A stretch of DNA of 64,000 nucleotides from positions 1 to 64,000 of the IMG/VR virus record IMGVR_UViG_3300046522_000316. One strand, 5' to 3'. Shown here one piece after another: positions 2,124 to 58,878 of the stretch. Position numbers and translations under genes: made by a program. Below the pieces are notes generated by a model. That model saw only the letters and a program-made list of their open reading frames with translations, had not been told where the DNA came from and did not search any database. Every line of letters begins with the position of its first letter. Within the stretch, counting starts at the first letter, position 1. The DNA comes from a virus (taxonomy: Duplodnaviria; Caudoviricetes).

Positions 2124-2543
2124 TTAGATCCCCCTTGCCCCGAGATTCAAATCAACAAACAGACGGTCGTCGCCATGCAACGCAAACGCACACATGAGAA
2201 AATTGTGCCCTACAAATTTTACGTGCAGCGGATGGTCACACGCATAACGCCTCGAATAAAAATTTTGATCATATGCACGGGATTCATCCATCTGCCGCTT
2301 GAGGCTTTCGTACAGTGAGTCAAAAACTTTGCACCCGGAGCGTTCGATCATCAGTTGCACAGCGGGGAATGTTACCCGGCCCGCGCAATTATGTTCAGGC
2401 AACCACGTACAGCGTGCATCGTCCGTCAGTTCTGTTTTGTTGTACACGAAAGCGTGAACAGCGTGGCCGAAAAGGGGAAACGCGTAAGTCATGCCTTCCT
2501 TCGACAGCATCTGATAGACGCTGTTGATATCGTTCTTTTCCAC
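2124..2543 (-). CDS. hypothetical protein
   Basis: GTG at 2541-2543 with AGGA upstream; ORF track start 2549. Confidence 0.65.
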   Translation of the reverse strand: MEKNDINSVYQMLSKEGMTYAFPLFGHAVHAFVYNKTELTDDARCTWLPEHNCAGRVTFPAVQLMIERSGCKVFDSLYESLKRQMDESRAYDQNFYSRRYACDHPLHVKFVGHNFLMCAFALHGDDRLFVDLNLGARGI

Positions 2544-2572
2544 GGGCAAATTCCTGTATGGATCATGCCCTA

Positions 2573-2581
2573 TATTTACAG
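2573..2581 (-). promoter_or_regulatory. candidate phage promoter motif CTGTAAATA
   Basis: Intergenic, ~30 nt before start; identical copies at 40670 and 50759 in equivalent positions. Confidence 0.55.
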
Positions 2582-2595
2582 TTTCGGCCCCAATG

Positions 2596-2628
2596 AAAAA
2601 GCCCCTGAATCCAAAAGGAAACAGGGGC
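2596..2628 (-). terminator. intrinsic terminator
   Basis: GCCCCUG/CAGGGGC stem followed by U5 on minus strand, just after stop at 2634. Confidence 0.75.
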
Positions 2629-2633
2629 CGGGG

Positions 2634-3440
2634 TCAAACGTACACCAAAGTTTTTGCAACGAAGTTTTCGAACTTATGCAGCAGTACGAACGTCGCCCAA
2701 TTGGTCGTGGTGTATACAGCGTCACTGGTCAGCATCGCGCCATCTGCCATGTCAACGGCTTCAGCATCGAGCATCACAATGTTGAATTCCCATCCGTTTT
2801 TAAACACGGCGAAAATTGGAGCATCTGCAAACGTCGCAGAAACTACAACGCATTTATTCGTCTGGTCGTACCAGCACCCGCTGACCACAAGGCCTTCGAG
2901 TTCGGAACTGCCTTCAGAAATCAACGCTTCCACCGGCCCACGGAAAGTTTCCAGCTGATCGCCGTTGTGTAAAACAACACGGAAATCTGTTGAAGAATTC
3001 GTCAGCCAAACATTCCCTTCACCCACCGTTACAGTGTGCCATTCTGGCCCAATCAAGATCGTTCCCTGATCAGTACCGAACGCCGGGCCACCGATATTTC
3101 TGGCGCAAATAAAATTGCCAGTAAACTCATGAACAAGCGTCCAGTCTTCATCGAGTGCGTAAATCCCCACGCCATCAACACAAGCGTAAAACTTGTCTGC
3201 GAAAACAACGTGAGAAAACACTAAATCAACATCCATTGGTGTCCATTCGATTTTATCAACCGATTCGAACACACCGGAACCCACTGCAATGTAACGACCG
3301 TTTCCGGAAGCAACAGAAACAATGGACGCCGCAACAGACGCAGGTACGAAACCAGTAGACTGAACGAATAAACCGTTTCCATCATGGTCTGTACCTGAAC
3401 CACCGACAACATACGAACGTCGCGGAACAGGTTTTACGAC
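2634..3440 (-). CDS. C-terminal extension (268 aa, beta-rich, possibly propeller-like) reached by -1 frameshift from 3434-4357
   Basis: Frame open from 3464 to 2634; first start codon is a GTG at 3284 without clear SD; upstream gene ends GCA AAA AAG TCG TAA. Confidence 0.7.
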   Translation of the reverse strand, partial: VVKPVPRRSYVVGGSGTDHDGNGLFVQSTGFVPASVAASIVSVASGNGRYIAVGSGVFESVDKIEWTPMDVDLVFSHVVFADKFYACVDGVGIYALDEDWTLVHEFTGNFICARNIGGPAFGTDQGTILIGPEWHTVTVGEGNVWLTNSSTDFRVVLHNGDQLETFRGPVEALISEGSSELEGLVVSGCWYDQTNKCVVVSATFADAPIFAVFKNGWEFNIVMLDAEAVDMADGAMLTSDAVYTTTNWATFVLLHKFENFVAKTLVYV

Positions 3441-3446
3441 TTTTTT
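3393..3446 (-). other. -1 programmed frameshift signal (A AAA AAG plus 3' stem-loop)
   Basis: Heptamer 3440-3446; 7-nt spacer; stem ACCUG/CAGGU, CC/GG, CGAC/GUCG over 3393-3432. Confidence 0.7.
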
Positions 3447-4357
3447 GCGATTGTCGCCAACACTTCAACCGAAACAGCATCGCCGGTTTGCAGGCGCGGA
3501 CGTGCTTCCAGTTTCAGCGTGTAGAGGCCCAGCGGCACACCGTCTTCGGTACGTTCAACCGATGCCGGAAGCATGTGGTCGATGTACGGGAAAGTGTACT
3601 GCTGAATCATTTGGGTTACGCGGTGATCAGCATCGGTTGCCGAATCGCTAACGACGCGAATACCTTGGCTGTACCACGTGTAGTTTTTGCCTTTGCCGTC
3701 TGGCGTTGGCGTGTTCTGCAAATCCCATTTGATCGGTGCAGAATCGCCGTCCGGATCTACATCGAGGTAAAGGGAAATGTCGTACATTTCCGTAATGTCG
3801 TTTACGCCAGCCAACAGCGAACCGGCAGTCACGGCAAAAGTCCAACGCTCGCCCGGTTCCAGTTCGATATCAAAACCGTTTGCACCGTCACCGAAATATT
3901 CGATGTTGTTGTATTTGCGCACGGCCAAACCGAGTTCGATATTTGCGTTGGAACCCAACACGAAATCGTCAGCCGGATTGCCTACGCCAGCCAGCATATA
4001 ATTCTTGCCGCCGACTTCACGAACGAAAGTGGTTTCTGCTTTTGGTGCTTCGGTCAGCGGGCCATAAACGATACTGGCGAGCGGGCCGGTTGCAGACCAC
4101 GGGCCGAGGCAGATAAGAACATCACCGAAATAAAACGAAATGATCTTGCCGTCATTGCCTGCTTCGATTTGCGTCAGCACCGGAACTTCGGAAGAACCGT
4201 AATGGGACGCAACGGTTTTACGAAATGCGCCCGATTGTACAACCTCTTCCATTTCGGCTTCGGTCAGTTGAATGCGGCGAACATTCGAGGGATCGCCTTT
4301 GTCCTGCAAGGCTTCAATAATCTCGGCCCATACGCCCGAGTAGTTCTGGACATTCAT
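3434..4357 (-). CDS. putative virion structural protein (307 aa short form)
   Basis: AAGGA SD; preceded by GTAATTTAA motif; beta-rich acidic sequence; structural role is inference. Confidence 0.7.
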   Translation of the reverse strand: MNVQNYSGVWAEIIEALQDKGDPSNVRRIQLTEAEMEEVVQSGAFRKTVASHYGSSEVPVLTQIEAGNDGKIISFYFGDVLICLGPWSATGPLASIVYGPLTEAPKAETTFVREVGGKNYMLAGVGNPADDFVLGSNANIELGLAVRKYNNIEYFGDGANGFDIELEPGERWTFAVTAGSLLAGVNDITEMYDISLYLDVDPDGDSAPIKWDLQNTPTPDGKGKNYTWYSQGIRVVSDSATDADHRVTQMIQQYTFPYIDHMLPASVERTEDGVPLGLYTLKLEARPRLQTGDAVSVEVLATIAKKS

Positions 4358-4416
4358 TAAAGAATTCCTTTATTGGTGGAAAACATGTGCAAAACTTCTG
4401 CACGGAATACCTACCA

Positions 4417-4425
4417 TTAAATTAC
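4417..4425 (-). promoter_or_regulatory. candidate late promoter GTAATTTAA
   Basis: Exact copies at 17757, 24811, 38911, 60942, each upstream of a structural or head-region gene. Confidence 0.55.
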
Positions 4426-7181: not shown

Positions 7182-7369
7182 TTCTCACCCGCTTTGCGCA
7201 CGTGCATAATATCCAGTGCGTACAATGGTTCGATACCGATAGCGCCATGCAAATAAACGCAGCTTACGCTATCGGCGTGTTCAAACTTTATGACCTGTAT
7301 TCCTAGCTTATTTACAGTTTCTTCCACATGGCTAGGTTGGTCGTGGTTGTCGATATAGACTTCGATCAT
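7178..7369 (-). CDS. hypothetical protein
   Basis: 63 aa, coupled to neighbours by TAATG/ATGA overlaps. Confidence 0.6.
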   Translation of the reverse strand: MIEVYIDNHDQPSHVEETVNKLGIQVIKFEHADSVSCVYLHGAIGIEPLYALDIMHVRKAGEK

Positions 7370-16121: not shown

Positions 16122-17714
16122 TTAAGCCGCGATTTGTTCCACGGCGGTACTGAGTTGGCCGGTAGCCGCAACGGTCGTGGTGAATTTAATCCGCTTCGCA
16201 TAACGAGTCGGCTGAATCACGTAAACCAGTGCAACGTCACCAGCGGCAATTTGCGATTTCGGGTTGGTATTCTTGTCGCAATACACCGCCGAGTAATACA
16301 AACCGCGTTGGCCTTTGATCGGCGTCAGGATGCGTTCCACGATACCTTTCAATTGCGCCCACAGGAATTCATCGTTCGGATCGAACAGGCCGACCAGAAC
16401 GTCATATTTCGCAGTGGTTTCGATCAAGTTGATCAGACGACGAACCGGAACATCTTGCAGCGCAGATTTTTGCGATTGCAAAGTCTGTGCGCCCCACACG
16501 CAATAACCGTAACCGGCTTGCTTGTGGATCATGTTGATTTGGTTTTGGTCGAGGATGTTCCGCTCAGGCAGCGAGTAACGGTGACGCGTGCCGCTGATTT
16601 CGGTAATCACACCACGAACAACACCAGCCGGTGCCCAAAACACATCCCGCGCTTCGTCAGACTGTGCGAACACAGCAGCGACAGCACCGGAACACGGCAC
16701 GTAGACTTCTTGGTTGTCGTCGGTAACTTCCAGAATATCCGAGCAATAAAGCGCGGCGAAACTGGTGTTCGTGTTCAGAACGTTACGGCGGTAATTCACC
16801 GCACGCGTTACCGTTTGTTGATCGGATGGAATGTCGAGGATCGCGAAACAATCCCGGCGAGTTTCCGCCAGCTGAATCATTTCTTGATGGATACCCGCGT
16901 CGGCGTAACCGGCGTTGATCAGCAAACGAATTTCGAAATCATCTTCGTTTTCGAATGCGCCCCAACCTTCGATGATATCGCCAGTGTTTGCCACACGACC
17001 GTTATCGCCGTAGGACAAATCGACTTCCACGATTGCGTTGATCAACCGTTTTGCGCCGCCCGAATTGATGTATTCCGGGTGCGAAGTATTCGGTTTAAAA
17101 CGAATGCGCGATTCGAGGTTTTCCAACTGGTACGCGATGCTCAGTTGACGACGTTGGCCGTCCACTTTTTCACGCAGAGTGCCACGGTAGGTTTCGACCG
17201 GGACGCTCATGTTGGTTTCGAAAACTTGCAAAACAAATTGTTCGTTTTCGATATCGTTCACGTCCGGATACATCAAGACGCGAAGCTGGTTGTTCCACGT
17301 GCCGGGATCAGCGCCGTAAATCAAACCGATTTCATCAGGCAGTTGATTGTGTTCGGTTGCCGGATCGAGATAGCCTTGCGTTGCCGCTTTGGCAGTTGCG
17401 AAACCGTCTTTCGTAACAACAGAACCGGAACCATAATTGGCTTCGGTATCAACGCGATAAAACCAAAGACGCTGCGCTTTTTTCAGGAAGCGTTCAGCGG
17501 CGAAATGGCCGAAGGTAAGCGATGCATCACGCAAGCCAAATTTGGCTCGGAAATCACCCACGCTAGTAACAAGCGTCGGTACTCCAACACGTCCGCGATT
17601 GGATTCACTTACCATGGCCCCCGTGGTCGGGTAGGTAGACGATGCGGATTGCGAGTTATCCACTTCACCGCCATACACACCCGCCGACGTATTACTGCCG
17701 TTTTGTAGGGTCAT
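16122..17714 (-). CDS. tail sheath protein 1
   Basis: SAGVYGGEVD N-terminus; FWAPAGVVRG; WGAQTL...VPVRRL...FDPND; GGAG SD before ATG 17714. Confidence 0.9.
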   Translation of the reverse strand: MTLQNGSNTSAGVYGGEVDNSQSASSTYPTTGAMVSESNRGRVGVPTLVTSVGDFRAKFGLRDASLTFGHFAAERFLKKAQRLWFYRVDTEANYGSGSVVTKDGFATAKAATQGYLDPATEHNQLPDEIGLIYGADPGTWNNQLRVLMYPDVNDIENEQFVLQVFETNMSVPVETYRGTLREKVDGQRRQLSIAYQLENLESRIRFKPNTSHPEYINSGGAKRLINAIVEVDLSYGDNGRVANTGDIIEGWGAFENEDDFEIRLLINAGYADAGIHQEMIQLAETRRDCFAILDIPSDQQTVTRAVNYRRNVLNTNTSFAALYCSDILEVTDDNQEVYVPCSGAVAAVFAQSDEARDVFWAPAGVVRGVITEISGTRHRYSLPERNILDQNQINMIHKQAGYGYCVWGAQTLQSQKSALQDVPVRRLINLIETTAKYDVLVGLFDPNDEFLWAQLKGIVERILTPIKGQRGLYYSAVYCDKNTNPKSQIAAGDVALVYVIQPTRYAKRIKFTTTVAATGQLSTAVEQIAA

Positions 17715-17756
17715 GGACTTTCTCCAGTAATCTCCCAAATCGTTTCGGGATTACTA

Positions 17757-17765
17757 TTAAATTAC
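17757..17765 (-). promoter_or_regulatory. candidate late promoter GTAATTTAA
   Basis: About 43 nt upstream of sheath 1 start. Confidence 0.55.
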
Positions 17766-20510: not shown

Positions 20511-21620
20511 TTAACGAACCAGACGCTTACCTTTCACGACGGAACGGTTGTTGGCGAGAACGAACGAGAACGCTTCGGACAGCATCCAGCCTTTAGCGGT
20601 AGAACCTTCGTGCGCGTAGTCAACCGGACGGGATTGGATACCGCCGCGAGTCGAGTAGGCAGCGTGGTGTTCAGGGCTGGCAACAACGTAGATTTCGCCA
20701 CGTTCCAGAACCTTTTGGTTCGGTGCGCGGAAACCATCGGTCAGCAGTTGCAGACCAACCAGCGTACCCAGCTGGCCGTTCAGAGCCAAGTCGTACTTGG
20801 TGATCGGATCGAGCATGGTTGCGAAATCGTTCGAACCGATGATATCCGACCAGTAGTCGTTGGAAATGATCGCGGTAGTTGCTGGCAGATTCCAGTCGGT
20901 TACAGCGGTGCGCAGACGACCAAGGTTTTTGGTGGTCAGTTCGCCAGCGATGTATTCGATTGGGTTCATCATGCCAACGGTTGCGTCAGCAGCGATTTTC
21001 CACAGACGGTCTTCCTGAACCATCATGCTTTGCAGCGCGTCGTTGTAAGCGTGTTCCAGCAGATCGCCCGAAACCTGTTCCATGTCCAGCGCGTTTACGC
21101 GAACGTTGGCGATGATTTCGAATTCGGCAGGCAGGAATTGACGAGCGCGAATGTTCTGGTAGCCGACGCCAGCAGGGCCGGTGGCAACAACTGCCATCGA
21201 ATCATGCGGAGGCATTGGAACGCGTTGAACTTCGCCCTGACGCAGAGTGTTACCTTGCGAAAGTTTACGCAGGAAACCATCACGCTCGGATTGCTCGTAA
21301 ACCTGTTGCGCGATGTTCGCGCCCAGTGCTTGCCAGTTTTCGTCGGAAGCCATTGCTTCGCGCATGATTTCGCGACGTTGTTCGCGTTGTTCTTTGCTCG
21401 AAGCGGTGGCGATTTGTTGTTCAGGAACAACGATGCCCTTTTGCACGGCGTCCATCAGACGACCGATTTGTTGGGCGAGGTCTTTGCTGTCGGAGGCGTT
21501 GAATTCGCCAGTGGCGGAACTCAGAGCCAGCGAACCACCTTTCGAATAGCGCAGTTCGTCGAGCGGGGAACCGTCACGCAGAACCATCCGTGCGCCTTGA
21601 ATTTTGTTTGGGGTGAACAT
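20511..21620 (-). CDS. major capsid protein
   Basis: 369 aa; HK97-like organisation inferred from sequence pattern; strong codon bias; follows scaffold and decoration genes. Confidence 0.8.
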   Translation of the reverse strand: MFTPNKIQGARMVLRDGSPLDELRYSKGGSLALSSATGEFNASDSKDLAQQIGRLMDAVQKGIVVPEQQIATASSKEQREQRREIMREAMASDENWQALGANIAQQVYEQSERDGFLRKLSQGNTLRQGEVQRVPMPPHDSMAVVATGPAGVGYQNIRARQFLPAEFEIIANVRVNALDMEQVSGDLLEHAYNDALQSMMVQEDRLWKIAADATVGMMNPIEYIAGELTTKNLGRLRTAVTDWNLPATTAIISNDYWSDIIGSNDFATMLDPITKYDLALNGQLGTLVGLQLLTDGFRAPNQKVLERGEIYVVASPEHHAAYSTRGGIQSRPVDYAHEGSTAKGWMLSEAFSFVLANNRSVVKGKRLVR

Positions 21621-24785: not shown

Positions 24786-24810
24786 TAGCAGGCTCCTTGA
24801 TGCTACATGT

Positions 24811-24819
24811 TTAAATTAC
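24811..24819 (-). promoter_or_regulatory. candidate late promoter GTAATTTAA
   Basis: Intergenic, about 26 nt before start 24785. Confidence 0.55.
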
Positions 24820-31184: not shown

Positions 31185-32482
31185 AGACGTTTCCCAGCAG
31201 TCATTTCAAGGTCGGCGGCCTTTTCCAAAACCTTGTCCAGTTCAGAGCCATGCATCAGGCGCCCGACCGAAACAGATTTCAATTGCCGCAAGTCTTCCCC
31301 GGCATGCACTTTGTAATGACGCAACGATTTGGTGTCTTCATTGTAAAGCACAAGCGTGTCAGACATGCCGTGTTCTTCAATGCTGACGATTACCCACTCG
31401 GCGTTATCCCGCGCAACCAGCACTTGCCCTTCTTGTGCCAATACCGCAGTTTCATCATCGACTGGTTCACCGTCTTCGTCGGTTTCCTGATCTTTGTGGA
31501 AATCCATTTCTGGATCTTCCTCTTCCTCAAAGTCTTCGTCTTCCAAAGGAGTAATACCCGGTTCTTCTCCTTTATTTACAGTATTGCCTCCGCTTTCCTC
31601 GGGGAAATCTTCCTGTTCGATTGGCGGATTCAGCAGATTTTCTTCGTCTTCCGGTTCGAAAGCGAAATCTTCGTCGATATCTTTGTAATCGAAAGTGGTC
31701 ACAAGCGGTTTGTTTCGCACCACATGTTTTGCACTTTCCGATTCGCCAGTTTTGGTCTGGCGCGGCAGCGGAACATCGCGTGGCTTGCGTGGAATTTTAA
31801 TCGCACGCGGACGCTTGGGAAGTTCTTTTGCCAGTTCTGCAAATTCGACGATGCCGGTCTGCTGTTGGGCACGTGGTTCAATGTCGGTATTGTTCGTGAT
31901 TTGTTCGTACAGTTCGTGCGCAATCAACACGCGTTCGCCGTTCGGCATAATCACGTAACCGCCATGGGATTTACGCAGGTAGCGCAGGCCCACAACGTCA
32001 CCGGTTTTCAAAGTAGAACGGGAAGTCCCGTAATGCTTCGTGGTCACGGTGATGTTATGCATTACCTTTCGCCACTGGTAATCGTCGCGGTCGTAACTGT
32101 GAACTTCGCGGGGTTTGCTCGGACTCACATAATACTGCGATTCTTGACGATCATTTTCCAGTTGGTTTTTGCGCATGTACTGGTGCCGGGCGCCTTCTTT
32201 CTTTGGCGCTTCCGGAATCCCTTTGTACTCTTTGAATTGCTTGATGAATTTATCGACCTGTTCCTGCTTGATCGACCGATAAATCTTTTGCGGATATTTG
32301 GCGAGTACCACTTGATACGCGCCAGCGGTTGGCCCCCGTGTTGCTTTTCGGAAACCAACCAAATCGTCAGCCTCGACCGTGACAGGCGTATCGTCCAGCC
32401 GCAACTTAAAACTTTTACCCGCGTTGTACATCCATTCGAACTGCTTGAAATCAGCAGGTGATGCGGCAAGGGAAATAATCAT
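31181..32482 (-). CDS. hypothetical protein, possible internal head protein
   Basis: 433 aa, N-terminus MIISLAAS, acidic linker. Confidence 0.7.
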   Translation of the reverse strand: MIISLAASPADFKQFEWMYNAGKSFKLRLDDTPVTVEADDLVGFRKATRGPTAGAYQVVLAKYPQKIYRSIKQEQVDKFIKQFKEYKGIPEAPKKEGARHQYMRKNQLENDRQESQYYVSPSKPREVHSYDRDDYQWRKVMHNITVTTKHYGTSRSTLKTGDVVGLRYLRKSHGGYVIMPNGERVLIAHELYEQITNNTDIEPRAQQQTGIVEFAELAKELPKRPRAIKIPRKPRDVPLPRQTKTGESESAKHVVRNKPLVTTFDYKDIDEDFAFEPEDEENLLNPPIEQEDFPEESGGNTVNKGEEPGITPLEDEDFEEEEDPEMDFHKDQETDEDGEPVDDETAVLAQEGQVLVARDNAEWVIVSIEEHGMSDTLVLYNEDTKSLRHYKVHAGEDLRQLKSVSVGRLMHGSELDKVLEKAADLEMTAGKRL

Positions 32483-37202: not shown

Positions 37203-38843
37203 TTAATTCTCTTGGAAGCTGATAGAGGAACCGAAATTGCGGATATCGGCGGTCAGGGAAGCACGGCGGGCCGGAATGCTCGGGTCGATAACGAAATCGA
37301 GGTTGATATCGTTATTCGCGATATCTGCCGGTTTGTTGTTACGGCTGTCGCAAATGGTTTCCCATTCGTACAAACCGCGACCGCGTTTTACCGTTGCTGC
37401 TTCGGCGTCCACGATGTTTTTCAGCTGCTTGCGTTCGTAATCGTCGGCAGGGTTGAAAACCGATGGCAGGAAAGCACGACGAATCATTGCTTTGATGCCG
37501 TTTACCAGACGACGCACGTTCACGTTCTGGAAACCAGACGCGAAGTTTTGCAGGGTCAGCTGTTCCATGATCACGAAACCACGGCCCGGAATTCGACGCA
37601 CGTAGTTGATTTGCGCCTGTTCCAAAGCGTTGCGTTCGCGCAGGCTGTATTTCTTGGAAAGATCCGTGACTTTTACCTGACCACGATTCAAACCAGCCGG
37701 TGCCCAGTAGTAGGCACGCACGCGGTCGGTGTACGCGTATTGCGCAGCAACCAAACCGGAAATCGGGCAAAAGAATTTCTTGCCGGAAACGTCGTCGGTA
37801 ATCTGACCACGCGGGCCGTACATTGCCGAGTAGCTGGAACTCAGGTTCAGGATATTGCGGCGGTAGTTCACAGCACGCGAAACTTCTTCGTATTCGTGCG
37901 GCAAATCAACAACCGAAATCGCGTCACCGCGTGCAGTTGCTACGGCGTCAATGCGACGGTGAATGATCGGGTTTTCGTAACCGCAACCAACCAGCAATTG
38001 CACTGCGAATTGATCGGTATCGTCGATGCCTTCCCACGCGTTGCTAACTTCGGCCACGGTTGCGCGCACGCCATCGGCGCCGCCATCCAGACGTTCGAAA
38101 GCGGAAGTGCGGATTTCAACCGGTGGGCAAAGCGAATTGTTTTTCACTTTGATGTATTGCGAGAATGCGTTTACACGCGACTCGACAAACATCTGATTGC
38201 CTTCGCCATCCAGTTCGAATTTACGCGAACACAGATACGATTCAACCGGAATGCTGGCGCTGCCCTGATAGTTCAGGAAAACTTCCAGATAGAAATGCGT
38301 CGGGTCATTGAATTCACCGACTTCGGTTCCTTCCGGGTTTGCCGGGCGAACCAATACAGTCAGTGCGCCAGCCCAATCGCCGGGGCTATTCGCGCAAACG
38401 TAAAGCAAAGCGTTTTTAACGCCCGGCTCATTTACGTTGAAACCCAACACGTCGAGCGGATTCCCCAATACGCCTTGCGGTTTGTTGGTTCCATCGTCGA
38501 AATTCACCAGTTTAATAACTGGTTCCAATGCAGCGCTATCGTCAACCGAAAGGTAGGCGCCAGCGGTGCGGGCGGTATCGGCGTTTACTGCGCGTTTAAT
38601 CCACATTGCGGTTTGCACCAAAACGTGTTCTGCGCAATGCATGCCGTAGCCGTATTTGGAATAGTTCTTGTCACCGAACTTTTCCTTCAAATCTTGCGTA
38701 TCGGTAACGTAAATCCATTCCGACGTAGAGCCGCGAGCGGACTCGATCACAGCAGCCGCAATAGAGCTAATGACCGGCGAACCGCGTTGACTTACGTCGC
38801 GATCCTGATCATAAACCCCAGCGCTGGAGTTTGTAAAAGCCAT
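37203..38843 (-). CDS. tail sheath protein 2
   Basis: SAGVYDQDRD; YWAPAGLNRG; QNVNVRRL...FNPAD. Confidence 0.9.
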   Translation of the reverse strand: MAFTNSSAGVYDQDRDVSQRGSPVISSIAAAVIESARGSTSEWIYVTDTQDLKEKFGDKNYSKYGYGMHCAEHVLVQTAMWIKRAVNADTARTAGAYLSVDDSAALEPVIKLVNFDDGTNKPQGVLGNPLDVLGFNVNEPGVKNALLYVCANSPGDWAGALTVLVRPANPEGTEVGEFNDPTHFYLEVFLNYQGSASIPVESYLCSRKFELDGEGNQMFVESRVNAFSQYIKVKNNSLCPPVEIRTSAFERLDGGADGVRATVAEVSNAWEGIDDTDQFAVQLLVGCGYENPIIHRRIDAVATARGDAISVVDLPHEYEEVSRAVNYRRNILNLSSSYSAMYGPRGQITDDVSGKKFFCPISGLVAAQYAYTDRVRAYYWAPAGLNRGQVKVTDLSKKYSLRERNALEQAQINYVRRIPGRGFVIMEQLTLQNFASGFQNVNVRRLVNGIKAMIRRAFLPSVFNPADDYERKQLKNIVDAEAATVKRGRGLYEWETICDSRNNKPADIANNDINLDFVIDPSIPARRASLTADIRNFGSSISFQEN

Positions 38844-38910
38844 GGGTGAATCCCCTTATATGGTTGGAATACGGGAAATTAAGAATCGCGAATAAACGCA
38901 TTTCCTGTAT

Positions 38911-38919
38911 TTAAATTAC
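38911..38919 (-). promoter_or_regulatory. candidate late promoter GTAATTTAA
   Basis: Intergenic, upstream of sheath 2. Confidence 0.55.
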
Positions 38920-40669: not shown

Positions 40670-40678
40670 TATTTACAG
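40670..40678 (-). promoter_or_regulatory. candidate phage promoter motif CTGTAAATA
   Basis: About 37 nt before start 40633. Confidence 0.5.
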
Positions 40679-43891: not shown

Positions 43892-44320
43892 TTAAAACTT
43901 CGGATAAAGGTGGCGGTATTCCTCCGTCATACTGAATTCGCTACCGATGTGAATATTGAAACGATATTCGCTGTCGGCGGTCATCCTGTTAACGCAGTCG
44001 ATCAAGTCTTTGGCGGGCCAGTTACGGGCGTAAACATTCATGCGGGTACGTGGTGTATTTACAGTCTCCAGCGCCCGCACACAATGCAGAAAAACTTCGT
44101 CGAGATTCGTATAGGTCGCGACCACAAGGGCCGGGCAACCTTTGTGGAAAAGCACCGGCACAATCGGATCGTCTTCCGAAAACAATTCGTGATGATCGCC
44201 GGTTTTAAATTGCTGCATCGTCGTGTACAAAGTCCACGATGGTTTCGGGCCGGGCAGCATTACCACGGGCGGCGCGCTATTCGGGAAACCTTCCTGCCGC
44301 GTCCATTCGATTTTATCCAT
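43892..44320 (-). CDS. hypothetical protein
   Basis: Start MDKIEW at 44320. Confidence 0.6.
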   Translation of the reverse strand: MDKIEWTRQEGFPNSAPPVVMLPGPKPSWTLYTTMQQFKTGDHHELFSEDDPIVPVLFHKGCPALVVATYTNLDEVFLHCVRALETVNTPRTRMNVYARNWPAKDLIDCVNRMTADSEYRFNIHIGSEFSMTEEYRHLYPKF

Positions 44321-47760: not shown

Positions 47761-50724
47761 CTACGCCTTCGCTGTGATCTTCACACCCTGACTCTTCCAG
47801 AATTTCTGCTGTTTCAAAGCCCATTCAGGTGCGTCCTCTTTCATGCGCGCCATGATTTGTTTGAACGTGGCGTTCGGATCAAGATCGTAGCCGAGGTCGT
47901 CGCGTTGGCCTTTGAGAGTTTTCATCAGCACTTCGTTGAAAGCGTATTTATCTTTCGTCTTGAAATCACCGGTCAACGCGTAATTCCAACCTTCGCACTT
48001 GTCGAGCGAGTGGCCGAATTCAAAGTCGATTTCCAATTGGATATCAAACTTGAAGTTGTGACGTTTAATCATTTCGCGTTCTACGTCGTGAGTCAGTCCC
48101 TCTTCGATCATCTGAATTGCCAGCCAAATGTCTTGGTAAGCGCAGGAGAATTCAAGGGAGTCGTGTACGCTGTTCGCCTGAATGAAATCAGGATAGTGAC
48201 CGGTCTTCTGGAAATGCTCAAACCGGCGACGTTCGATGCAGCGCGCACCCGTCATCATGAAATCAGAACCCATGCCCTGTACTGGACTATTTACAGATTG
48301 CCGTTCCGCACGCGACGTGATGTTGCCCGCGTCTTCGTGAGAGTTCGGCGTGATCAGGCCCCACAGGTTACGGCGACGGCCTACAGGCGATTCCACATAC
48401 AAATGCTTGCGTGCGTGTGCCTTGGCCTTATCGAACCACTTACCGCCGACCGGGAATCGTTTAAAGAATTGTGTTGTCAATTCCTCAACCATTTCGACCG
48501 TGGCGTTGATGGACTTCGCTGTACCTTTCGCGCCTTGCTGGTAAATCAAACCGAAAATTACTTGCTTAACGGCTTGACGCATTACCTTGTCAACTTCCTC
48601 GATTGCTTTCCGGAAGAAGAACGCGGCGTTGATCTTGTGAACGTCACCCTTGAGGTCGATTTCCTTGGCAAGATCCATCGTCGGTTTGCGTTTGAATTTC
48701 TCACGCAATTTCAAACCGATCCGGAATGCTTCCGCTACCGCGCTGTCGCCAGAAATCAACGACCAGCAGCGTACTTCGTGCGCCGAGTAGTCCACCTTAA
48801 TAATTATTCGACCGTCCGGTGCAATGAACAATCGTTTAATCAGTTTACCCATTTCACTACGCGACGGAATTGTCTGCAACGTAGGATCGCGGGCCGATGT
48901 TCGACCTGTAACCACGTCGAGATAACCGAACCGAGGCCGCATGCAGCGGTCGAATCGGAAGTCTTCGTCTTCGCCCCATTTTTTAATGAAGCTCTTCACA
49001 TACGCGTTGTAAAGTTTTTCGATCTTCGTCAGTTCCGTGAACAGCTTAATTTCCGGAACGTCTTCGTATTTCTTTTGGAAGTCTTTGTCGATCTTGCCCA
49101 AGCCCTTTTTGTTCATCGTCAGGGGCTTGAGTTTCAGCACTTCGAAGAACAGCAGCTGCTTGTGTTCCTCCTTGTTAATCTTGAAGAGCTTCGTTTTCGT
49201 TCGACCGAATAGACCCATGGCCGGGACGCCCGAGCGTTTGGCAAGAAGCTTGTTAGCTTTCTGTACCCCCTCGGATTCGTACAGCGCTTTAAGCACGCGG
49301 TTTTTCTCGCGCACAATATGCGAGTCTTTCGACTTGAGTTTGAACAGCCAGTCGATATCGACATACGAGCCATTGAACTCAAGGTTAGACAGCGTGTGAA
49401 TCTGATCGCTAAGCTGTTCGGTAACGAGCGAGAAATACTTGTCGTAACCGATTGTCTTCGCGTATTTCATCTGCAATTTTTGAATGTGCAGCAGGACGAT
49501 TACGTCGAGGGCCATGTACGTTAAAACCGGCCCTTCCAAATCCATGTCCGCGATGAATGCTCGCTGTTCCTTACCGAAGTCGGATTCGTAATAGGCGCGA
49601 CAGCCATACTGCATGCAGATATTGAGCAACGAGTAATAGTTCCGCCCGCTGATCCCTTGAATCGTTTTGTGGTTTTCATCCTTGGCGAATTCCGCCGAGA
49701 TAACACACCACAGCGGCGTCTTGAAATAACGAACGCCAAGGTCACGACGCGCAGCGATCAGGTCGAACGCGGCGTTTGCGTAGAGATTGTATTTGTTCTT
49801 CGATTTGTGTTCGAAGTAATCACGCAATTTCTCTTTGATGTACGCAAGTTCTTTCGGGAGGAACGGCGTGTCCTTATGCAGGAATGGCAGGATGTACGCC
49901 TTCCCCGTTTCAGTCGCGAACTGCCACGTCACCGTGTAGTTCTTTCGCCGTTTCAGACTTCGGGCCTCCGTGTCGATTGACACGACTTCCGCGTTGGTAA
50001 TGTCCTTCAACATTTTGTCGAATTTCTTAATCGTATCAACCATCACGATTTTGTAATCCAACTTCGGAACCTTGTACATCATCTTGCCGTCGTTAAGACA
50101 GGTCGTCAGGTTCCGCGCCACGTACCCGGCTGCTGCCATCGTGTCATCGGATTTCTGCAATGACCGAAGCGACAGTGTAGAGACGTGATTGAATTTGTGC
50201 GTGTCGCCTTTTACCGTGACCTTGGCTTTGATCGGCACACCGTAAAAGTGCTGCCACAAAATACCGCGTTCACTTTTGTGCTGCGAAATGAAATCGCCGC
50301 TGATTGCTTTGGTCGGGTCAGGCCCGAACGTCACAACCGTATCCGGTTTGTAAACCGAGATAATGTATTCCAGACGCTTTTTGAATTCCTGCTGTGCCAG
50401 TTCCACAAACGCAGGCGCACCGCCTACGGTTTTGAAGCTGTGATAACTCATGCACAACCAGTTGTAATCATCGAGCTTGTGCGGTGCTTTGTTAAAGTTC
50501 TCTGCCAACTCAAAAAGGTTTGACATGAGGTCGCCGGTTGCACCATCGAGAATGCGATTCTTCCGCATGGCCTCGCCCGGCATATAGTCCAACACAAACA
50601 GAATTTTCCCACGAGCTTTTTTCGTAACGTGCTTGGCGAGTTCCACACCATCGAAGCTAGTAATCTCGTACTGCTTCAGCGCCTTACTATACTTGTGTTT
50701 AAATTCTACATATTCACACTTCAT
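47761..50724 (-). CDS. polA: family A DNA polymerase with 3'-5' exonuclease and N-terminal UDG-like domain
   Basis: SIDTE (exo I); TGRTSARDPTLQTIP; VDYSAHEVR (A); KQVIFGLIY (B); VHDS (C). Confidence 0.93.
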   Translation of the reverse strand: MKCEYVEFKHKYSKALKQYEITSFDGVELAKHVTKKARGKILFVLDYMPGEAMRKNRILDGATGDLMSNLFELAENFNKAPHKLDDYNWLCMSYHSFKTVGGAPAFVELAQQEFKKRLEYIISVYKPDTVVTFGPDPTKAISGDFISQHKSERGILWQHFYGVPIKAKVTVKGDTHKFNHVSTLSLRSLQKSDDTMAAAGYVARNLTTCLNDGKMMYKVPKLDYKIVMVDTIKKFDKMLKDITNAEVVSIDTEARSLKRRKNYTVTWQFATETGKAYILPFLHKDTPFLPKELAYIKEKLRDYFEHKSKNKYNLYANAAFDLIAARRDLGVRYFKTPLWCVISAEFAKDENHKTIQGISGRNYYSLLNICMQYGCRAYYESDFGKEQRAFIADMDLEGPVLTYMALDVIVLLHIQKLQMKYAKTIGYDKYFSLVTEQLSDQIHTLSNLEFNGSYVDIDWLFKLKSKDSHIVREKNRVLKALYESEGVQKANKLLAKRSGVPAMGLFGRTKTKLFKINKEEHKQLLFFEVLKLKPLTMNKKGLGKIDKDFQKKYEDVPEIKLFTELTKIEKLYNAYVKSFIKKWGEDEDFRFDRCMRPRFGYLDVVTGRTSARDPTLQTIPSRSEMGKLIKRLFIAPDGRIIIKVDYSAHEVRCWSLISGDSAVAEAFRIGLKLREKFKRKPTMDLAKEIDLKGDVHKINAAFFFRKAIEEVDKVMRQAVKQVIFGLIYQQGAKGTAKSINATVEMVEELTTQFFKRFPVGGKWFDKAKAHARKHLYVESPVGRRRNLWGLITPNSHEDAGNITSRAERQSVNSPVQGMGSDFMMTGARCIERRRFEHFQKTGHYPDFIQANSVHDSLEFSCAYQDIWLAIQMIEEGLTHDVEREMIKRHNFKFDIQLEIDFEFGHSLDKCEGWNYALTGDFKTKDKYAFNEVLMKTLKGQRDDLGYDLDPNATFKQIMARMKEDAPEWALKQQKFWKSQGVKITAKA

Positions 50725-50758: not shown

Positions 50759-50767
50759 TATTTACAG
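50759..50767 (-). promoter_or_regulatory. candidate phage promoter motif CTGTAAATA
   Basis: Intergenic, about 35 nt before polymerase start. Confidence 0.55.
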
Positions 50768-58198: not shown

Positions 58199-58878
58199 TG
58201 CAAGTCTCCAATTGAGGCCCTTCGCCAGACGGCTAAGAGTTCTTTTTCTAGAAGCGGGTAATGCGGCATTTCTGTCAGAAAGAAAACCTCATATTTCAAA
58301 TAGAGGTGATCGCCCTTCAGGCGCGCAATGCTGATTTTCATGTCGCGATTTAAAACCACCACGTTTTCCTGCCACGGCTTTACCTGTCGGATCGTTCCGG
58401 GGCAGCGATCAGTTACGATGGTCACGGCTTCACCGCCACGCATTACTTTGCGGCGATCAAGTTTCAGTGAGTCAGGAAGTTCCTTTAGCACTTTCACTTG
58501 CACCATTCGATTCAGCAAATAATCGAGGGAGAACCGTTGAGCCTTCATTTTCACTTGGCCCACGATTTTGAAACCGTGAACAACGTTGGTCATGTCATCG
58601 GAATCAAACACGATTTCAAACGTATGCTTTTGCGGCTTCAGGTGATACAAAAGAAACTTGGAATGCAGCGCGCTACTGAAGGCGGCGTACAGTTTATTTA
58701 CAGTAAAGAAATCCTTCAAATTGTGGAGCGTTTTGACTTTTACCCCGGCCTGACGCAAAAGGATTCGAAAACCTTCTTTCAAAACTTTAGGGTCAAGCTT
58801 TTGTACATCGGGTAATTCTAAAAACGCTTCCCACGATCCGGCAAATTCCGGATCAATGTCAGGTGGCATCTTTAGCAT
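58195..58878 (-). CDS. hypothetical protein
   Basis: 227 aa ORF in operon. Confidence 0.7.
   Translation of the reverse strand: MLKMPPDIDPEFAGSWEAFLELPDVQKLDPKVLKEGFRILLRQAGVKVKTLHNLKDFFTVNKLYAAFSSALHSKFLLYHLKPQKHTFEIVFDSDDMTNVVHGFKIVGQVKMKAQRFSLDYLLNRMVQVKVLKELPDSLKLDRRKVMRGGEAVTIVTDRCPGTIRQVKPWQENVVVLNRDMKISIARLKGDHLYLKYEVFFLTEMPHYPLLEKELLAVWRRASIGDLQ

Follow-up and report, generated by a model that had tools for sequence, protein, structure and literature searches.

Programmed -1 ribosomal frameshifting at the heptamer A AAA AAG, followed by a 3' stem-loop, operates in the Escherichia coli dnaX gene and in insertion sequences of the IS3 family, such as IS911 and IS150. Frameshifting also extends phage virion proteins, among them the capsid protein of T7 and T3 (10A/10B) and the capsid and tail proteins of the Listeria phages A118 and PSA. 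Fraser and co-workers reportedly described, in 2006, immunoglobulin-like (Ig-like) domains appended to structural proteins. Here we describe a gene of a tailed phage (Caudoviricetes) that very probably uses a frameshift of the dnaX/IS3 type to add a whole domain to a 307-amino acid (aa) protein. The gene lies in a stretch of 64,000 nucleotides (nt), positions 1 to 64,000 of the IMG/VR record IMGVR_UViG_3300046522_000316. This stretch at its full length is called the window, and all positions refer to it unless another sequence is named. The frameshift gene and the features listed with it are on the minus strand. The window derives from a metagenome of rhizosphere and shares approximately 70% nucleotide identity with the Pseudomonas jumbo phages HRDY3 and Lu11. 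An earlier note, made from the letters of the window, had proposed a -1 programmed frameshift with products of 307 and about 574 aa, and this proposal is supported by the tests of heptamer, reading frame, synonymous sites, hairpin and propeller presented below.

An ATG at 4357 opens an open reading frame (ORF) of 307 codons (P0001; 3434-4357), which ends in GCA AAA AAG TCG TAA. A structure model gives its product a helical N-terminal part and an Ig-like beta-sandwich. The slippery heptamer A AAA AAG occupies positions 3440-3446 in the X XXY YYZ phase, and the 0-frame stop TAA (3434-3436) stands one codon past it. In the -1 frame there is no stop from 3464 to the TGA at 2636-2634. After the shift this frame reads KK-VVKPVPRRSYVVGGSG and continues for 268 codons plus the TGA (2634-3440), encoding a proline-rich, basic linker and then a predicted BNR/Ycf48-like beta-propeller. 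The first in-frame ATG, GTG or TTG is a GTG at 3284, 52 codons past the shift site. The predicted long product therefore has 306 + 268 = 574 aa. The sequence AAAAAAG occurs 18 times in the window, so the heptamer alone is not rare. The copy at 3446-3440 is the sole one of the 18 with a long 0 frame upstream (308 codons) as well as a long -1 frame downstream (268 codons). On recheck, every coordinate in the earlier note (ORF, heptamer, -1 frame, GTG and hairpin) proved correct, and a rereading of the -1 frame returned the 52 start-less codons that it had reported ahead of the GTG.

The junction was compared with 13 other loci (about 11 distinct sequences), namely Lu11, HRDY3, ten metagenomic loci and a contig from IMG/VR. 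All 13 of these frameshift-type loci carry the unchanged heptamer in phase. Among heptamer-bearing loci the identity of the upstream protein falls to 53% (loci L005 and L013) and 47% (L017). The 0-frame stop is found one codon past the heptamer in the relatives, and immediately past it in Lu11. The upstream protein has a nearly constant length, with 22 homologues of 306 to 309 aa, and the -1 frame is open for 275 to 281 aa in every frameshift-type relative. The first in-frame ATG, GTG or TTG of that frame stands 38 to 100 codons into it, at positions that are non-homologous among the relatives. Retention of the heptamer and the start-less frame in relatives, which had been suggested as a check, is thus seen in 13 of 13 other loci. 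In addition, contigs from independent studies that cross the junction of the window show not a single inserted or deleted letter.

Conservation of the protein read in the -1 frame starts exactly at the lysines of the slip site, with the pattern KK-V-x-K/T-P-x-P...VVGGSGT. The -1 reading 5' of the heptamer is not conserved. Invariant residues are present all through the start-less part of the extension (alignment A1). Past the hairpin described below, the start-less stretch has differences of 0.24, 0.19 and 0.55 at the first, second and third codon positions, and the rest of the extension has 0.34, 0.28 and 0.57. Because the wobble pattern of the start-less stretch is the same as that of the rest of the extension, we conclude that the stretch is translated in the -1 frame. 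The impression that the 52 codons before the GTG read as ordinary coding sequence agrees with both the conserved residues and the predominance of wobble substitutions.

A candidate stimulatory hairpin is located at 3393-3432 and consists of a 5-bp outer stem followed by an inner stem of 4 + 4 bp. RNAfold places it at 3432-3393, 7 nt past the heptamer, just as had been noticed from the letters, with a folding energy of -17.1 kcal/mol (z = -2.0 in a context of 55 nt). All seven frameshift-type relatives that were folded singly also form a hairpin at exactly this spacing of 7 nt from the heptamer, with energies of -15 to -23 kcal/mol. In L005, L016 and L017 the inner stem has another sequence, and pairing is retained. 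Across the alignment 98% of the cells of the core stem pair, compared with 27-47% when the partner is slid. Constraint at the level of RNA is also apparent in the synonymous sites. Synonymous identity reaches 0.85-0.94 around the junction against a mean of 0.56 over approximately 580 aligned codons, and no window elsewhere in these codons exceeds 0.85. The peak is limited to windows that extend from 4 codons ahead of the slip site to about 17-25 codons beyond it, and third-position differences drop to 0.24 in the junction zone. This frozen zone overlaps the hairpin and reaches approximately 60-75 nt downstream.

Two distant homologues serve as natural controls. A search of 1.8 billion representatives with a profile of the extension identified P0028 (contig L015), a distant relative that is one uninterrupted ORF of 582 aa. 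In the alignments the upstream protein corresponds to residues 1-305 of P0028 (44% identity) and the extension to residues 305-581 (34%). The two parts join at the slip-site lysine, in a different junction sequence that has neither the heptamer nor an A-run. The collinear fusion through the junction indicates that both parts function as one polypeptide, and the different junction sequence indicates that an error in a homopolymer of the same gene does not account for P0028. The earlier note had reasoned that homologues with a single fused ORF would point to a sequencing indel. One fused homologue does exist; 13 loci keep the frameshift, so the indel reading is not borne out. The second control is L004, the most distant homologue (43% identity), which encodes the short protein alone and has no heptamer and no extension. 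The short form is thus viable by itself. The L004 homologue (2501-3681 of that locus) is found between a dCMP deaminase gene and a dUTPase_2 gene, in a gene order unlike that of the Lu11 clade.

The extension is modelled with confidence as an all-beta propeller (pLDDT 85, pTM 0.84), in agreement with the suggestion of a beta-rich, possibly propeller-like module, which PDB and ESM Atlas comparisons also favor. Residues 1-14 of the model, which follow directly on the shift and are rich in Pro, Lys and Arg, are disordered and linker-like. Residues 18-60, which are encoded upstream of the GTG at 3284, supply propeller strands in the model. Searches of the PDB returned Kelch and WD40 propellers (E about 1e-6), and searches of the ESM Atlas returned DUF6242_C, Beta-prop_HVO_0234 and PSII_BNR (Ycf48/BNR) clusters (TM 0.74-0.81). 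The profile of the extension also matches repeat proteins that carry DUF6242. No Pfam family scored above threshold for the extension (P0002). The extension is at best a distant relative of the BNR/Ycf48-like (DUF6242_C, HVO_0234-like) propellers.

The two reading frames are flanked by putative transcription signals. Approximately 60 nt upstream of the ATG is the motif GTAATTTAAT (4416-4425), whose overrepresentation suggests a promoter, and TAATTTAA is retained at the same place upstream of the ATG in all frameshift-type relatives. Right past the stop of the extension the sequence has the form of an intrinsic terminator (2596-2628), a GC stem with a T-run, and an equivalent stem and T-run is found 3' of the extension in every relative. 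Between the two frames there is neither a terminator nor a promoter motif. The shared promoter-like motif upstream and the terminator past the extension indicate that the two frames form one transcription unit. The 5' leader of the 307-aa gene contains a small hairpin (4387-4403), which is situated past the GTAATTTAAT motif and ahead of the ribosome-binding site. The hairpin is found at the equivalent place in L001, L002, L005, L007 and L009-L014, with a variable sequence and a constant position.

The window has four copies of the degenerate motif GTAATTTAAW, where 0.17 would be expected, and all of them are on the minus strand (4416-4425, 17756-17765, 24810-24819 and 38910-38919). The three copies other than that of the frameshift unit precede two tail-sheath paralogues and an operon with the major head protein gene (20514-21620). 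Thus the frameshift unit is plausibly co-regulated with structural genes, although the evidence is circumstantial. The tail-sheath paralogues, 16125-17714 and 37206-38843 on the minus strand, are 20 kb apart and match PHROG 23 with E values of 2e-73 and 7e-60. A second motif, CTGTAAATA, occurs nine times on the minus strand of the window against 0.14 expected (534-542, 2573-2581, 7309-7317, 31573-31581, 40670-40678, 44056-44064, 48288-48296, 50759-50767 and 58695-58703). One copy is approximately 20 nt past the terminator of the frameshift unit, in the window and in most relatives. A similar sequence, ACTGTAAATGG, is labelled 'putative middle/late promoter' in the Lu11 record. It is likely that CTGTAAATA represents a class of phage promoter distinct from GTAATTTAAW.

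The 307-aa protein is modelled as two N-terminal helices and an Ig-like sandwich (pLDDT 77). Neither this protein nor the extension has a significant family in PHROGs or Pfam. A Foldseek search of the upstream protein against the PDB gave no clear match, and VIA-align returned only generic Ig-like sandwiches (Z 5-6.7). Homology was found with two proteins of other phages. Residues 118-304 share homology with gp9 of Sphingomonas phage PAU, in its N-terminal region (hhalign 98.5%, tblastn E 7e-11), and with the C-terminal domain of Pseudomonas phage PA5oct gp383 (hhalign 97.9%, tblastn E 7e-7), and a search of BFVD is consistent with both. In GenBank, PAU gp9 carries the note 'capsid decoration protein (banana)', and PA5oct gp383 is annotated as 'structural protein, ESI-MS/MS'. 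PAU capsids bear an arch-like extra density, for which the gene was not named (PMC5646251). The designation of the 307-aa product as a late virion protein had been asserted without evidence; it now has the indirect support of the homology to PAU gp9 and PA5oct gp383 and of the shared promoter-like motif. The chances that the protein is on the virion, and probably on the capsid surface, are about even. In one relative, L007, the dCTP deaminase gene that precedes the frameshift unit (1-1052 of that locus) holds an intein and encodes 608 aa with the domain order DCD, Intein_splicing, DCD.

The case for a frameshift is made by the anatomy of the junction and its conservation, by the coding-like evolution of the start-less stretch, by the constraint on the RNA at the junction and by the fused homologue. 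From them we consider it very probable that the gene uses a programmed ribosomal frameshift (-1) of the dnaX/IS3 type, whose products would be a protein of 307 aa and one of 574 aa with a propeller. Several points weigh against this reading. The support is at the level of sequence and not of protein. No Shine-Dalgarno-like stimulator at the dnaX-type distance upstream is conserved among the aligned relatives; a GAGGT is found approximately 18 nt upstream of the slip site in some relatives only, and a GGAGG-like element about 10 nt 5' is not conserved. The hairpin has modest energy z-scores, -1.4 to -2.1 in most relatives and -3.6 in L017, and its arms encode conserved residues (P-x-P and GG-x-G). 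RNAalifold and the counting of pairs on the alignment identified no two-sided compensatory changes. All of the variation is one-sided (A-U to G-U, U-A to U-G and G-U to G-C); formal covariation is therefore absent, and the structure is supported by conservation instead. Finally, the neighbours of the frameshift gene are a dCTP deaminase gene, a DUF1353 gene and small ORFs without assigned function, with no obvious structural module among them.

A further point against the ribosome as the agent is that one A inserted on the A6 run would give an identical protein. RNA polymerase, rather than the ribosome, would then slip on the homopolymer, and a subset of the mRNAs would encode the fusion in one frame. 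Efficient transcriptional slippage in bacteria needs runs of approximately 8-9 or more A or T residues. The run at the junction is six, shorter than this threshold, and the final G of the heptamer is invariant in 14 of 14 loci although a synonymous AAA would lengthen the run. Slippage by the polymerase also gives no role to a hairpin at the spacing of ribosomal frameshift sites (7 nt), nor to synonymous sites that are frozen for about 60-75 nt downstream. One contig from a cDNA library crosses the run with its length unchanged, which counts for little, since minor variants are lost from contigs and DNA may be present in the library. Taken together, transcriptional slippage appears unlikely.

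Separate translation of the downstream frame, from the GTG at 3284 or from a non-canonical start, is implied by the way in which Lu11 and HRDY3 are now annotated in GenBank. Gene callers do get a start in every relative, and the GTG is present in the window. The called starts are not homologous, however, and are placed 38-100 codons into the open frame. No ATG, GTG or TTG lies between the heptamer and the GTG of the window, and the 52 codons in this interval are conserved as protein, vary predominantly at the wobble position and form strands of the propeller. As P0028 is moreover collinear through the junction, we regard two independent genes as very unlikely. Homopolymers are prone to indels, and one distant relative has the fused version, so that a sequencing or assembly error, or a recently broken fused gene with its 3' part a pseudogene, also deserves consideration. 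The same arrangement of frames is nevertheless found in 14 loci, from isolates and from unrelated metagenomes, and contigs of independent studies have no indel. The junction of the fused relative differs and has no A-run, and purifying selection acts on the extension throughout the clade. Artefact or decay is thus extremely improbable.

Under the ribosomal frameshift, a single transcription unit, from the promoter-like motif (4416-4425) to the terminator (2596-2628), would encode one protein in two forms. Most ribosomes would remain in the 0 frame and stop at the TAA (3436-3434), producing the 307-aa Ig-like protein of the PAU gp9/PA5oct gp383 type. Some ribosomes would pause at the hairpin and slip back by one base on A AAA AAG. 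The tRNA-Lys in the P and A sites would re-pair on AAA AAA, and reading would go on for 268 codons in the -1 frame. The resulting 574-aa fusion would have a flexible Pro/Lys/Arg linker and then a BNR/Ycf48-like beta-propeller with six or seven blades. That the slippage is ribosomal we infer, as well as its efficiency. Both forms may be on the virion, probably on the capsid surface, with the long form displayed substoichiometrically and its propeller presumably acting as a binding module on only some of the copies.

In the GenBank records of Lu11 and HRDY3 the locus appears as two separate hypothetical genes with an unannotated gap, as had been anticipated for standard annotation, which was expected to call two unrelated genes. 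The start of the downstream coding sequence (CDS) is arbitrary: Lu11_0041 has 229 aa and the HRDY3 CDS has 178 aa. HRDY3 also has a 47-aa ORF antisense inside the extension frame (XDJ15263.1; L001, 4735-4878), which is probably a spurious call due to the missed frameshift. Our literature searches for frameshifting in Lu11-like or jumbo phages gave nothing relevant, and the papers on PaBG and PA5oct make no mention of this gene. The mechanism is an established one, and so is the addition of domains to phage structural proteins by recoding; no record of a relative annotates the present case.

The frameshift corrects annotation across a clade of jumbo phages that includes Lu11, HRDY3 and many metagenomic relatives from soil and rhizosphere, in which two unrelated hypothetical genes are at present annotated and the second is shortened by 38-100 codons. 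It adds a well-supported and testable recoding site to a group of phages without a described one. The protein in two forms may be on the virion surface, and the long form has in its propeller a candidate adhesin. The natural series, in which the extension is absent, frameshifted or fused, provides a means to study why phages regulate extensions by recoding. Tentatively, and with more doubt than confidence, the frameshift may be a stoichiometry dial for a capsid-surface decoration protein in Lu11-like jumbo phages. Most copies would be plain and a set fraction would bear an outward BNR-like propeller as a binder of glycans of the host or the environment. Lineages would have toggled among no extension (L004), a frameshift-regulated extension (the Lu11 clade, L016 and L017) and a constitutive fusion (L015). 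If true, these lineages form a natural series for testing how recoding tunes the composition of the virion surface.

Compared with described systems, the locus combines features of several. With the lambda-type G/GT pair it shares a conserved -1 frameshift in a tailed phage and a short and a long product, which in G/GT are in fixed ratio. G/GT, in contrast, sits between the tail tube and tape measure genes, its products are unlike those described here in size and fold, and there is no homology. An assignment as a G/GT tail assembly chaperone was rejected; the gene context is wrong (dCTP deaminase, small ORFs without assigned function, DUF1353) and there is no PHROG or Pfam match. PAU gp9 and PA5oct gp383 have the homologous beta-sandwich domain of approximately 180 aa. 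In PAU gp9 this domain is likewise followed by a long C-terminal continuation, but gp9 is a single ORF of 768 aa with no frameshift. Its C-terminal part was compared as a possible relative of the propeller and is unrelated to the extension. PA5oct gp383 ends where the 0-frame product ends and has no frameshift.

The resemblance to the frameshift-extended virion proteins is one of design. There is a short major form and a longer form with a common N-terminal body and an extra C-terminal domain, and the context may likewise be the virion surface. The appended module differs: those proteins gain a short tail or an Ig domain, and this one would gain an entire beta-propeller of about 255 aa. In this phage the Ig-like fold is already present in the base protein, whose place on the virion is suggested by homology and promoter sharing. 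At the slip site the likeness is to dnaX and the IS3 family, in that the heptamer and its phase are identical, a short spacer leads to a 3' hairpin, and the 0 frame ends soon after the site. The dnaX site uses an upstream Shine-Dalgarno-like enhancer, which was not found at the phage site, and its shift truncates the protein (tau to gamma). The phage shift instead lengthens its protein by 268 residues, as does that which produces OrfAB of the IS3 elements.

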